DNA of 64,000 nt, from NCBI GenBank assembly GCA_036930585.1, contig GCA_036930585.1_3066.1. One strand, written 5' to 3'. Positions 11,141 through 59,770 of the stretch are shown piece by piece. The translations under genes and the position numbers were made by a program. How positions within the stretch are numbered: position 1 is the stretch's first letter; every line of letters begins with the position of its first letter. The notes below the pieces were generated by a model that saw only the letters and a list, made by a program, of their open reading frames with translations, did no database searches and was not told where the DNA came from. The DNA comes from a phage.

Positions 11141-11743
11141 TTATAGATTAAATCCTTCAAAATCAAGAGTATAGATAGTGTATGTTGAATACTTTTTGTA
11201 CTCATATCTATCTGCAATTCTAAATACACTTCCAGCTGGTATCATTACTTCTTGTTCATCTGAAACTAATTCCATATTACGATAACGATGGCTATCCGGA
11301 AACTTAAAGTTTGGATTGTATTCTTTACAACGTAGAGCTTTTATAGCATACTCCTGGAAATTGAATACCATAGGAGCTTTGAATTCAAAAATAACTTGTG
11401 TGTTATACTCTAAACCGGAAGCAAAATGTAGAGCTATATTTTTATCATATGAAGCTGATACGACTTTATCAAATGTAATAATATCAATTCCTTGATTTAA
11501 TACTCGCTTAGTCTCAGCTGGAACACCTCTCCAAAGAGGTTTATCGTTTGGTTCCAAACGAGATTTGATTATTTCATTTAACCAAATATGGTCATCTGGT
11601 TTATTAGTAATACAATGAATTAAAAGTTCAATTTCAGATAAATTAAACCCTTCAGAAAGTAATTCTTCACGAATAGAAGCACGCACCGATGCATCCATTG
11701 ATTTGATTTTAAAATCTTTTAATTGCATTGCTGAATATTTCAT
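11141..11743 (-). CDS. modA: ADP-ribosyltransferase ModA, 200 aa
   Basis: size and order as T4 modA; paralogous to adjacent modB. Confidence 0.75.
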   Translation of the reverse strand: MKYSAMQLKDFKIKSMDASVRASIREELLSEGFNLSEIELLIHCITNKPDDHIWLNEIIKSRLEPNDKPLWRGVPAETKRVLNQGIDIITFDKVVSASYDKNIALHFASGLEYNTQVIFEFKAPMVFNFQEYAIKALRCKEYNPNFKFPDSHRYRNMELVSDEQEVMIPAGSVFRIADRYEYKKYSTYTIYTLDFEGFNL

Positions 11744-12363
11744 TCAACTACCTCAATATCATAAACTTTAAATGTTCCAAATGAATCGTGTAATTTTTCT
11801 TTTGAAATAGAAGTTATTCTATACTTTCCAATTGGAATCATCCATTCTTGTTCACGCACAATCATCATTAAGTTATCAGTACGCTCTGAATCTAGCCCAT
11901 CAGTATCTTCATACGTGTACTTAAACTCAGTATTAGGAGAAGAAAGTATAATATCGCTGATATGGTCAGAATAATTAAAAGCTTTATCAGTTTTTAAGCG
12001 AAATATTATTTCAGTGAAATACTCAACATAAGAAAAACCACATGCTGTGTGCAAACTAGTAGTAAATGAATCTACCCTATTCGTTGAAAACACTTCTCCA
12101 ACTTGTAAATCTTTAATGAGTTCTTTTGTCGATTTTGATATACCACGATATAACTGATAAGGTGATTTAGTTAAATGCTTTTTAACGATTTTATTCAACT
12201 GCCGATGAAGAGCTTCATTCTTTTTAGCTTCCATACATTGCCAAAGAATTGACTGCTCAAAGTCAGTAAATTTTTCACAGACTTTTTTATACATATCATA
12301 TTGAAAATCAACGCTTTCAGCTTTTATAGATAACTGTTCAACATCTGCAAGATTAATAATCAT
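11740..12363 (-). CDS. modB: ADP-ribosyltransferase ModB, 207 aa
   Basis: size and order as T4 modB; ATGA overlap with modA. Confidence 0.75.
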   Translation of the reverse strand: MIINLADVEQLSIKAESVDFQYDMYKKVCEKFTDFEQSILWQCMEAKKNEALHRQLNKIVKKHLTKSPYQLYRGISKSTKELIKDLQVGEVFSTNRVDSFTTSLHTACGFSYVEYFTEIIFRLKTDKAFNYSDHISDIILSSPNTEFKYTYEDTDGLDSERTDNLMMIVREQEWMIPIGKYRITSISKEKLHDSFGTFKVYDIEVVE

Positions 12364-56602: not shown

Positions 56603-57184
56603 CTAACCGAGCTTTTTAGTTAATTCATTCCAATGTTTTCTACACAAAGAAACATAAATTTCATCACCAATACAGATTTGATTACCTTCTTTAACTGGTG
56701 TTCCATCTTCCATTAATCGAGCTGTCATAATAGCTTTTTTACCACAATGACAAACTGCCTTTAGTTCAATAAGTTTATCTGCAATCGCCAAAAGTTCTTT
56801 AGAACCTTCAAATAATTTTCCAGCGAAATCAGTCCTTAGCCCATAAGCCATAACAGGAACATTATATGTATCAACAATTCGACTTAATTGATGCACCTGT
56901 TCAGTTTTTAAAAACTGAACTTCATCTACAAATACACAATGAATATCTTTTTGTGCTTCAGCCCATTTATAGAACTCAAAAATATCCATATCATCCGTAA
57001 TAATATTCGCTTCCTGCTTAATTCCAATGCGAGAAACGACTTCACAGACAGAATCGCGAGTATCAATAGCAGGCTTAAGAACTAATACACTCATCCCACG
57101 TTCTTTATAATTATGCGCAGCAGTCAAAAGAGAAGCAGATTTTCCAGCATTCATTGCTGCATAAGTAAAAATTAAACTCGCCAT
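56603..57184 (-). CDS. tk: thymidine kinase, 193 aa
   Basis: [44 protein letters not shown]... Confidence 0.95.
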
Positions 57185-57193
57185 ATCACCTTC

Positions 57194-57379
57194 TTAAAGC
57201 ATATTCACATAAGCTATTAATTCGTTTTCTTTCTTATCAAACCGATCAGCAAATTCTTCTTGCTGTTCGGGAGATAGCGGGCCGTATTCATCATAAAAGG
57301 TGTTTGCTTCTGTATGCTCATCTAGAAGTTCATGGATAAGCTCAAACAATTTATCTTTTTGTTCTTTACTCAGACTCAT
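57194..57379 (-). CDS. small acidic protein, 61 aa
   Basis: ATG ORF. Confidence 0.5.
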   Translation of the reverse strand: MSLSKEQKDKLFELIHELLDEHTEANTFYDEYGPLSPEQQEEFADRFDKKENELIAYVNML

Positions 57380-57549
57380 ATATTAATTTCCAGGAGTTTT
57401 AAAATAATTCGCTTTTGCTTAAATATTTCCATAGTTAAATGACCAGTATCTTTTTGACCGATTCCAATGGCAAAACCTTTATTGACAGCGAGTTCAATTA
57501 AATTATCAAGCTCACGTAACACTTCATACTGTAACTCAAAACTATTCAT
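57376..57549 (-). CDS. small hypothetical protein, 57 aa (not in ORF track)
   Basis: MNSFELQYEVLRELDNLIELAVNKGFAIGIGQKDTGHLTMEIFKQKRIILKLLEINI; ATGA overlaps. Confidence 0.4.
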   Translation of the reverse strand: MNSFELQYEVLRELDNLIELAVNKGFAIGIGQKDTGHLTMEIFKQKRIILKLLEINI

Positions 57550-57758
57550 TTCGGTTTACCTTCTTTAACGAAATCTGGATAAGGATAAAATCCCGAATAA
57601 AATCCTTCACCTTTATGATTGATGCATCCTTTATTAGAACAATAGCACCAATAATCGAAATCACAAGCCATTTCATCGTTGCATAAAGCAAAAACAACTG
57701 GCCATTTACACTTTTCACAATGGGCATTTTTAAGAATACTAGTTTGGCTCATAACCAT
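57546..57758 (-). CDS. cysteine-rich small protein, 70 aa
   Basis: CEKCKW...CDFDYWCYCSNKGCINH. Confidence 0.5.
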   Translation of the reverse strand: MVMSQTSILKNAHCEKCKWPVVFALCNDEMACDFDYWCYCSNKGCINHKGEGFYSGFYPYPDFVKEGKPK

Positions 57759-57961
57759 GTAACCTTTAAGCAGTATTCTTCTACATGCTGTTTACGACCT
57801 TTCTTATCAATAAAGGTATATTCAACGAATGTTCCAATGTAGTCTTTATCTACATCATGCGGACTATTAATTGGACATTTAGTACGGCAAATGCGTTCCC
57901 ATTGACGAATAATTACTGCCTTATTCTTTGGGTCATATGGATGTGGATAATGTATATTCAT
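57749..57961 (-). CDS. hypothetical protein, 70 aa
   Basis: ATG at 57961 overlapping macro-domain gene stop (ATGA). Confidence 0.45.
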   Translation of the reverse strand: MNIHYPHPYDPKNKAVIIRQWERICRTKCPINSPHDVDKDYIGTFVEYTFIDKKGRKQHVEEYCLKVTWL

Positions 57962-58425
57962 AATAACGGTTCCCAATCAACAATCACAATTTCTAATTTA
58001 GAGGAATATGTATCTAAAATCCCCTCAATAATATCCCAGTTCCCTTTACCTATGCCTGCACCAATCCTAGGCATATAGATTGTAGGTTTAATCAGTTTAT
58101 TTTCACCAAACTCATTTAATTCTAACATACAATTCATTAAAGCGGAATACTCAAAATTTGGCCCTGGTTGAAATTGAGTATAAAGGTTGAAGCAATACGC
58201 TTTATGAGTCCTAAAGTATTTTTCATAGACTGAGTAAGAACCGAGTTTAGTTACATCACCCCATTCAGTCTGTAATTTATCAGCTTCCAAAATTTTAGGG
58301 AAAGCTTTGGTTAATTGACCCGCTACGCCTGAACCCATAGTATGAAAACAATTGCATCCATGCGCAATATTTTTACCTTCAGCGAAAAGGGCGACAATAT
58401 CGCCCTTGATATATTTTACAATCAT
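57958..58425 (-). CDS. macro domain protein (putative ADP-ribose binding/hydrolase), 155 aa
   Basis: GDIVALFAEGKNIAHGCNCFHTMGSGVAGQL and MPRIGAGIGKGNW resemble macro-domain glycine-rich loops. Confidence 0.55.
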   Translation of the reverse strand: MIVKYIKGDIVALFAEGKNIAHGCNCFHTMGSGVAGQLTKAFPKILEADKLQTEWGDVTKLGSYSVYEKYFRTHKAYCFNLYTQFQPGPNFEYSALMNCMLELNEFGENKLIKPTIYMPRIGAGIGKGNWDIIEGILDTYSSKLEIVIVDWEPLL

Positions 58426-58763
58426 CTAGTACTCAATCCTCGATTATAAGAATCTACCAAACGGTCAACCATTGAATGACAAGCGGCTTTATCTTTCTCC
58501 TCCGCAACTGAACATTCTAAGGTATTCCACTTTTTAGCATATCGTTTTAATAATGTATCGTTTTTGTATCTGCTTGATTTATCTCTTTCTCCGTCTTTAT
58601 ATGCATATATTAATTTCTGCGCAAATTCAGCTTGGCATTCTTTATTTTTCCCACAATAATCCGCGGCAGTACGGTTTACATACTCTCTAATTTCAGTATA
58701 TGATGTATCTGCTAACGCAGAAAATGAAATTAATCCTATACATAAAACCAAAATTTTAGTCAT
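58422..58763 (-). CDS. secreted protein with signal peptide, 113 aa
   Basis: MTKILVLCIGLISFSALA signal peptide. Confidence 0.5.
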   Translation of the reverse strand: MTKILVLCIGLISFSALADTSYTEIREYVNRTAADYCGKNKECQAEFAQKLIYAYKDGERDKSSRYKNDTLLKRYAKKWNTLECSVAEEKDKAACHSMVDRLVDSYNRGLSTR

Positions 58764-59301
58764 TTACTATTTCCAAAAGTTTATTATTTTTAAGGTAATT
58801 AGCCTTTTCTAGGACTTCAGAAGCATATTTAGAACCAGCTTTAACATTCCATCCCGAATTATAAGAGGATATTGCTTTTCTTATATCGCCCTTATGTATA
58901 TTTAACCAATAAGAAAGTTCAATGCACGCCCAGGAAGCTGAATTGGATCGTTTATTCAACATTCTTTTTATTTCAGCATCGGTCATATTATAACCAAGTT
59001 CCTTAACTCTTGCTCGCATAGTAGGCAAATAATTTTGGAACATTCCATAAGCGTGATGCTTTGGTTTAGATTTTAAATTAACTCCGCCAGAGCTTTCTTG
59101 CCATAAAATAGCAGCCATTATATGACCTAATCCGCTCTTGCGGATATTTTTGTGTGTTTTATATTTTCCATCCTTAGAAAATTGTTCCCCGAATTGATAC
59201 GCGTAACGCATGTTATCGAGTTGGACATTACTGAAAGTATGCTCGGAGCTATGTGCCATCATTGAAATGGCCAATAGACCAGCGAGTAGTGCTTTTCTCA
59301 T
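58756..59301 (-). CDS. periplasmic lytic transglycosylase-like protein, 181 aa
   Basis: signal peptide; ILWQESSGG...YGMFQ resembles Slt catalytic motif. Confidence 0.5.
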   Translation of the reverse strand: MRKALLAGLLAISMMAHSSEHTFSNVQLDNMRYAYQFGEQFSKDGKYKTHKNIRKSGLGHIMAAILWQESSGGVNLKSKPKHHAYGMFQNYLPTMRARVKELGYNMTDAEIKRMLNKRSNSASWACIELSYWLNIHKGDIRKAISSYNSGWNVKAGSKYASEVLEKANYLKNNKLLEIVND

Positions 59302-59308
59302 GCTTACC

Positions 59309-59770
59309 TCATTGAGTTTTAATTACTGCTTTAGAAGCCTTTCCTGGTAAACGACGACTGTTGATAATTGCCATCCTACATTGAAGTGACGGGTCTTTGA
59401 ACTTCGCGTTAGGTTTACAAACTGTAAATCCAAGCCAAAGATTTCCATCTGTGATTTCTAAACGTCCAGGACGGTATTCAACCCCATCAATAAAATCCTC
59501 ATCAATGTCAGGACGCGGAGGCATACTCAGGAATTCATTAACTTCTAAAACATGGTCTTTTATTTTGTGGAATAATTCAAAAACATATGTCTCATCAATC
59601 TCCCGTTGAATTGCACGATCAAGAAGATGCTGAGAATATTTTAGATGAAACGATGAGACCCCTGCTGCTTTTGATGCCTCACGAATATCATTGTTAATTT
59701 GACGAAACTCCGACTCAAAGTGACGACGAAGCTTATTTCGACGGATAAAAACTTCTGTGTTGATAGTCAT
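59309..59770 (-). CDS. regB: endoribonuclease RegB, 153 aa
   Basis: MTINTEVFIRRNKLRRHFESEFRQINNDIREASKAAGVSSFHLKYSQHLLDRAIQREIDETYVFELF... Confidence 0.9.
   Translation of the reverse strand: MTINTEVFIRRNKLRRHFESEFRQINNDIREASKAAGVSSFHLKYSQHLLDRAIQREIDETYVFELFHKIKDHVLEVNEFLSMPPRPDIDEDFIDGVEYRPGRLEITDGNLWLGFTVCKPNAKFKDPSLQCRMAIINSRRLPGKASKAVIKTQ

Follow-up and report, generated by a model that had tools for sequence, protein, structure and literature searches.

The window analysed here is a 64,000-nucleotide stretch of phage DNA (contig GCA_036930585.1_3066.1 of GenBank assembly GCA_036930585.1), and the subject of this report is a run of three adjacent genes on its minus strand, which an initial annotation had read as encoding a 155-aa macro-domain protein, a secreted protein and a protein resembling the soluble lytic transglycosylases (SLT). 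The three open reading frames (ORFs) were confirmed at the positions given for them (Table 1). By sequence comparison the window belongs to a T4-like Tequatrovirus and the three ORFs are tk.4, vs and vs.1. Escherichia phage Elenatom shares 99.6% identity with the 2.1-kb stretch around them, which has matches in 657 phage records, and gene order and names are identical in the T4 RefSeq record (NC_000866). The Tk.4 protein itself is 100% identical to T4 ORF 60.5/Tk.4, and the Vs leader carries a two-amino acid deletion relative to the T4 reference. An additional ORF of the DUF7202 family overlaps both tk.3 and tk.4; because this ORF is missing from the T4 reference, where tk.3 and tk.4 abut, the phage is a relative of T4 and not T4 itself.

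The two glycine-rich stretches that had suggested a macro domain are present in the 155-aa protein (GCNCFHTMGSGVAGQ at residues 23–37 and MPRIGAGIGKGNW at residues 118–130), and Tk.4 scores 27.7 bits with the Pfam Macro profile (PF01661; gathering score 22), residues 22–132 spanning profile positions 2–113 of 118. An AlphaFold2 model (106 homologues; pLDDT 96.1, pTM 0.91) has the three-layer alpha/beta/alpha arrangement of a macro fold, so that the non-macro fold named beforehand as counting against the assignment was not what structure prediction gave. Foldseek comparison of the model with the PDB placed TARG1, Poa1p, BT1257 and DarG at the top (E 3.6e-10 to 3e-7), the closest solved folds being those of human TARG1/OARD1, yeast Poa1p and Bacteroides BT1257 (2fg1/2afc). 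Because of these top matches, Tk.4 is assigned on its predicted structure to the ALC1/TARG1-like class; its nearest structural neighbours are TARG1, DarG, Poa1p and SCO6735-like proteins, and it lies clearly apart from the MacroD, viral and PARG classes. Poa1p is an Appr-1''-p phosphatase, and we know of no function assigned to BT1257. Tk.4 has no leader peptide. The similarity of tk.4 to A1pp domains was published in 2006 (PMC1524935).

The function of this gene has been approached genetically in T4. In the 2025 HIDEN-SEQ preprint (bioRxiv 10.1101/2025.11.20.689424) a T4 transposon library was screened on a host expressing DarTG2, and the single significant hit under DarTG2 was tk.4, which was accordingly renamed adfM (anti-DarT factor Macrodomain). 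The gene was a condition-specific hit only under DarTG2, and a clean T4 tk.4 knock-out was sensitised to the system (bioRxiv 10.1101/2025.11.20.689424). This agrees with an earlier observation that T4 is still DarTG2-resistant when adfA and adfN are both missing, from which a further factor was predicted (PMC11825919). The AdfM of that screen and the Tk.4 of the window are identical in protein sequence and alike in locus and neighbours, and nothing substantive differs between them. The macrodomain gp104 of the jumbo phage PhiKZ, also named AdfM, strips the ADP-ribose made by DarT2 off DNA in vitro (PMC13309987). The 155-aa ORF is tk.4/adfM, an early-expressed stand-alone macrodomain, and we consider it very probable that it shields the phage from the DarTG2 toxin–antitoxin defence of the host. 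The initial annotation had offered reversal of host ADP-ribosylating defence toxins as one possible function, and this idea is supported by the published DarTG2 genetics, as tk.4 is needed for growth of T4 on DarTG2 hosts (bioRxiv 10.1101/2025.11.20.689424). The counter-defence role of tk.4 was thus reported in 2025, and enzymology of a macrodomain counter-defence protein, that of PhiKZ, followed in 2026. As to mechanism, Tk.4 would most likely hold ADP-ribose in its macrodomain pocket and hydrolyse the ribose–thymine N-glycosidic bond, so that normal DNA would be restored.

The residues of the pocket were examined with this mechanism in view. Tk.4 has the conserved Asn (N25) and the two Gly-rich phosphate-binding loops of an ADP-ribose pocket, within a signature that reads H22-G-C-N25, M30-G-S-G33, Y82-T83-Q84 and P119-R-I-G122-A-G124. 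Q84, Y82, G33, A35, P119, I121, G122 and G124 do not vary among the 106 homologues, and conservation is at least 90% at H22, G23, C24, N25, C26 and T83. When aligned with better known macrodomains, Q84 (in Y-T-Q) falls on the catalytic Lys of T. aquaticus and M. tuberculosis DarG, PhiKZ gp104 and TARG1 (F-P-T-K or I-T-K), a register that is confirmed by profile–profile alignment (hhalign probability 98%). Thus the Lys lies in F-P-T-K in DarG (T. aquaticus, 5m31/5m3e; M. tuberculosis, 5m3i) and in PhiKZ gp104, whereas Tk.4 has Y-T-Q, and where TARG1 has a Lys84/Asp125 dyad Tk.4 has Q84 and G126 in the same columns. DarG also differs in possessing a second, DarT-binding domain, which Tk.4 lacks. 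As read from these alignments, the active site of Tk.4 is of a Gln type and not of the Lys type of DarG, TARG1 and PhiKZ AdfM; this Gln84 detail goes beyond what we found on T4 Tk.4 in the parts of the literature available.

A precedent for a Gln-type site is SCO6735 of Streptomyces coelicolor (PDB 5e3b), which has Gln85 in place of the catalytic Lys and cleaves thymidine-linked ADP-ribose (PMC9411070), a substrate that TARG1 cleaves too. On thymidine-ADP-ribose DNA the Q85A mutant of SCO6735 is dead and N27S nearly so, the protein guards cells from DarT, and the mechanism proposed for it relies on a water held in position, the distal ribose being oriented by the Gln (PMC9411070). The series His24-x-x-Asn27, Gln85 and Gly126-x-Gly128 of SCO6735 parallels H22-x-x-N25, Q84 and G122-x-G124 of Tk.4, so that a His three residues ahead of the Asn and a Gln replacing the Lys, the marks of an SCO6735-like Gln-type site, both appear to be present. 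Like Tk.4, SCO6735 is a stand-alone domain with a P-R-I-G-x-G loop and counters DarT; unlike Tk.4, it is encoded by a bacterial DNA-damage-inducible gene and is not a phage counter-defence protein, and the two sequences are distant (E 3.3e-4). Lys34 and Lys89, which contact DNA in SCO6735, have no obvious counterparts in Tk.4, where spacing would put S32 and a P/N in their places.

The same comparisons bear on the name AdfM. PhiKZ AdfM matches DarG at 1e-24, and the alignment between PhiKZ AdfM and Tk.4 extends over merely 23 residues; the two proteins that share the name therefore belong to different macrodomain subfamilies, one Gln-type and one Lys-type. It may be that T4 AdfM, as a Gln-type enzyme, was recruited separately from the Lys-type AdfM of PhiKZ, and the substrate range of the two may differ. 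That one name spans two mechanistically different subfamilies bears on any prediction of the ADP-ribosylating defences that a given phage macrodomain will counter. It also means that the suitable catalytic-dead controls for Tk.4 are Q84A or N25A and not a Lys mutant.

Several points weigh against the hydrolytic counter-defence role of Tk.4 or limit how far it extends to the window. For T4 Tk.4 itself the literature yielded only genetic evidence and no assay of enzyme activity, and hydrolysis by Tk.4 was inferred in the preprint from structural similarity (bioRxiv 10.1101/2025.11.20.689424). The genetic evidence is that of a preprint and was obtained with T4, of which the phage of the window is a close relative that differs in the Vs deletion and in the extra ORF between tk.3 and tk.4. 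The equivalence of Tk.4 Q84 and SCO6735 Q85 is transitive, by way of DarG K80 and TARG1 K84, since the direct alignment to SCO6735 covers only 28 residues. Tk.4 lacks DarG's catalytic Lys, all 106 family members having Gln in its column, and the NCBIfam DarG equivalog model (NF048014) scores Tk.4 at 30.3 bits where the cutoff is 250, matching positions 2–146 of 338. Tk.4 thus falls outside the DarG equivalog by score, by the missing catalytic Lys (K80 in T. aquaticus DarG, K84 in TARG1) and by the missing two-domain architecture, and there is no adjoining ADP-ribosyltransferase-like ORF that might be a darT beside tk.4, the neighbours being tk.3/DUF7202 and vs. Lastly, DarT activity in vitro is reduced even by catalytically dead SCO6735 (Q85A), DarG (K80A) and TARG1 (K84A), the strongest inhibitor being SCO6735, an effect that the authors of the SCO6735 study ascribe to interaction-inhibition (PMC9411070). 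Because such dead proteins still inhibit the toxin, protection could come about without hydrolysis, and Tk.4 might counter DarT2 mainly through binding to the toxin or by covering up ADP-ribosylated sites, its pocket acting only as a binding module, a view with which the lack of the catalytic Lys would also fit. We think this improbable, as the residues that are catalytic in SCO6735 (His, Asn, Gln and Gly-x-Gly) are invariant or nearly so in the 106 Tk.4 homologues, which fits an enzyme, and the DarT-binding C-terminal domain of DarG has no counterpart in Tk.4 (155 aa compared with the 338 positions of the DarG model).

A different kind of target is suggested by the presence in the window of ModA and ModB, which the initial annotation had pointed out and which were indeed found (Table 1). 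Tk.4 might tune the phage's own programme by removing the ADP-ribose, or RNA chains, with which Alt, ModA or ModB have modified proteins of the host, all of these genes being early. Alt, ModA and ModB are arginine modifiers, and the activities of the ALC1-like class are directed at Asp/Glu esters, thymidine (N3) and phosphate-linked ADP-ribose; to our knowledge no member cleaves the arginine linkage that the three phage enzymes form. Of these substrates, thymidine and protein are the ones confirmed in the cited literature, in the parts available. We regard such tuning as very unlikely: the tk.4 phenotype is DarTG2-specific (bioRxiv 10.1101/2025.11.20.689424), the portions of the literature consulted hold no data tying tk.4 to Alt or Mod targets, and tk.4-like genes are found in 2,751 phage records from many groups, rV5-like and Felix O1-like phages among them (tk.4-like genes alone were counted). 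The interpretation first given for the locus therefore holds in respect of the macro fold, the secreted and Slt-like neighbours and counter-defence, the genes being named T4 genes; for the tuning of ModA/ModB ADP-ribosylation, neither our results nor the parts of the cited papers available give any pointer.

GenBank labels the protein a 'phosphatase' with an A1pp motif, and a small-molecule activity of this sort, on ADP-ribose 1''-phosphate or (as a deacetylase) on O-acetyl-ADP-ribose, has to be weighed as well. Activities on Appr-1''-p and O-acetyl-ADP-ribose are common to many macrodomains in vitro. The label was derived from domain similarity only (PMC1524935), and since the activity would leave the DarTG2-specific phenotype unexplained it seems to us a highly improbable account of what Tk.4 does.

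Upstream of tk.4 lie vs and vs.1, whose products differ from Tk.4 in bearing predicted leader peptides. Both begin with a basic n-region, followed by a hydrophobic core within the 10–15 residues typical of Sec export and by an A-x-A/S site in which −3 and −1 are occupied by small residues, and these features are kept in their homologues. In Vs.1 the predicted leader occupies residues 1–18 (MRK, then ALLAGLLAISMM, then A-H-S, followed by S) with a hydropathy maximum of 2.35 in the first 30 residues. The 181-aa protein scores 25.6 bits with the Pfam SLT profile (PF01464; gathering score 21.3), and the motif that had prompted the Slt-like call is there (E69-S70 and Y85-G-M-F-Q89). The three SLT motifs, E69 in W-x-E-S, G86-x-F88-Q89 and Y147-N148-x-G150, remain unchanged in 23 homologues with identities as low as 41%. 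Vs.1 has the E-S, G-x-F/M-Q and Y-N-x-G motifs and the leader peptide in common with the family-1 soluble lytic transglycosylases, but it is very divergent from them, consists of a single small domain and appears early in infection rather than as a tail or endolysin component. We take Vs.1 to be a putative SLT-like (family-1 lytic transglycosylase-like) enzyme, which upholds the initial call; the SLT similarity of vs.1 was published in 2006 (PMC1524935). A search of PDB sequences gave no match at E<=1, and no assay of Vs.1 for murein cleavage to a 1,6-anhydro-MurNAc product was found in the portions of the literature searched. Vs.1 homologues occur in 2,048 phage records, from large virulent myoviruses (T4-like, Ackermannviridae-like and Felix O1-like).

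For Vs, the signal-peptide call at 58422–58763 stands. The predicted Sec-type leader (residues 1–18) consists of MTK, the 12-residue hydrophobic core ILVLCIGLISFS and A-L-A, followed by D. Hydropathy peaks at 3.0 within the first 30 residues as against 0.75 for the remainder, and the mature mass is 11.1 kDa. The leader is conserved as a pattern and not as a sequence down to 29% identity, and to the same limit four Cys residues are retained (C37-x5-C43 and C84-x10-C95). The AlphaFold2 model is helical and of low confidence (pLDDT 62; seven-sequence alignment), with the Cys pairs flanking two helix–helix turns. The family is confined to T4-like phages (810 phage records), and a profile search of a library of 1.84 billion proteins for distant relatives returned seven proteins, all of the Vs family, and no functional lead. 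The leader and the conserved Cys suggest an exported, disulfide-bonded protein of 11.1 kDa, which conflicts with the decades-old annotation as a valyl-tRNA synthetase (ValRS) modifier, a cytoplasmic role. These export signals go beyond the literature found: the search, which did not take in the 2003 T4 genome review, turned up no paper on Vs export or on the original assignment of the vs ORF. Two published observations concern Vs itself: vs was the gene most depleted in minimal medium (M9) in HIDEN-SEQ (bioRxiv 10.1101/2025.11.20.689424), and an expression study found Vs to be insoluble when made at full length with an N-terminal tag (PMC8076793). A fuller picture, in which Vs is a Sec-exported periplasmic protein of ~11 kDa with two disulfides and possibly partners or regulates the SLT-like Vs.1, to which it is translationally coupled, is offered tentatively and we consider it rather doubtful; if Vs is periplasmic, the link to ValRS and the minimal-medium requirement need a new explanation.

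The arrangement of the three genes raises the question of whether they act together. Stop and start codons overlap at both junctions: the vs stop overlaps the tk.4 start (ATGA), and the 3' end of vs.1 overlaps the vs start by 8 nt. Every gene from tk to regB is on the minus strand in the ORF list, and the order regB-vs.1-vs-tk.4 is shared by T4, Klebsiella phage pzk-kv8 and Erwinia phage Cronus, that is, by the genera Tequatrovirus, Marfavirus and Roskildevirus, the last with one inserted gene. The overlaps and the order conserved across three genera would suit a single functional module, such as a cell-envelope or lysis system that includes the macrodomain. Against this, Tk.4 is leaderless whereas Vs and Vs.1 bear leaders, the numbers of phage records diverge (2,751 for tk.4, 810 for vs and 2,048 for vs.1), and Ackermannviridae-like phages have tk.4-like and vs.1-like genes far apart (Se-B: 51 kb versus 0.1 kb). 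The gene inserted in Cronus separates vs from the macro gene, and the conditional phenotypes differ, M9 medium for vs and DarTG2 for tk.4 (bioRxiv 10.1101/2025.11.20.689424). A joint function of all three is scarcely credible in our view and was rejected on the differing distribution and localisation. We read the adjacency of tk.4, vs and vs.1 as T4-like synteny that has been conserved inside an early transcription unit, not as a functional module, so the link between the neighbouring genes that had been implied at first comes down to synteny; vs.1 and vs would be co-transcribed, translationally coupled neighbours upstream of tk.4 in the conserved T4-like order.

Table 1. Features of the tk-to-regB region and the ModA and ModB genes in the window
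Feature	Position	Strand	Description
ModA	11141-11743	-	200 aa; PHROG 'RNA polymerase ADP-ribosylase'
ModB	11740-12363	-	207 aa; PHROG 'RNA polymerase ADP-ribosylase'; 4-nt overlap with ModA
tk	56603-57184	-	thymidine kinase
tk.1, tk.2, tk.3	57194-57758	-	small ORFs
tk.3	57546-57758	-	Pfam 'Phage zinc binding domain', E 2.6e-29
DUF7202 ORF	57749-57976	-	75 aa; Pfam DUF7202, PHROG 2008 (unknown function)
tk.4 / adfM	57958-58425	-	155 aa; stand-alone macrodomain
vs	58422-58763	-	113 aa; annotated 'valyl-tRNA synthetase modifier'; PHROG 1256, E 2e-40
vs.1	58756-59301	-	181 aa; SLT-like (putative); Pfam SLT 25.6 bits; PHROG 600
regB	59309-59770	-	endoribonuclease; Pfam REGB_T4, E 2.2e-68; first gene of the regB-vs.1-vs-tk.4 run
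Promoter-like site	59826-59798	-	sigma-70-like early match TTTACT-17-TATAAT with TG; just upstream of regB

Two minor observations concern the features around tk.4. A hairpin at 58387–58407 (AAGGGCGA-tattg-TCGCCCTT, then TTTC) has a perfect G+C-rich stem of 8–9 bp, lies 18 nt into tk.4 (codons 7–13) and is unique within the window. It is annotated in one GenBank record as a rho-independent terminator, an assignment that we rejected, as its 66-nt context folds no more stably than shuffles do (z = −1.33) and its T-run is short. The T4 RefSeq record gives tk.3 the label 'Tk.2 conserved hypothetical protein', apparently through a slip in annotation.

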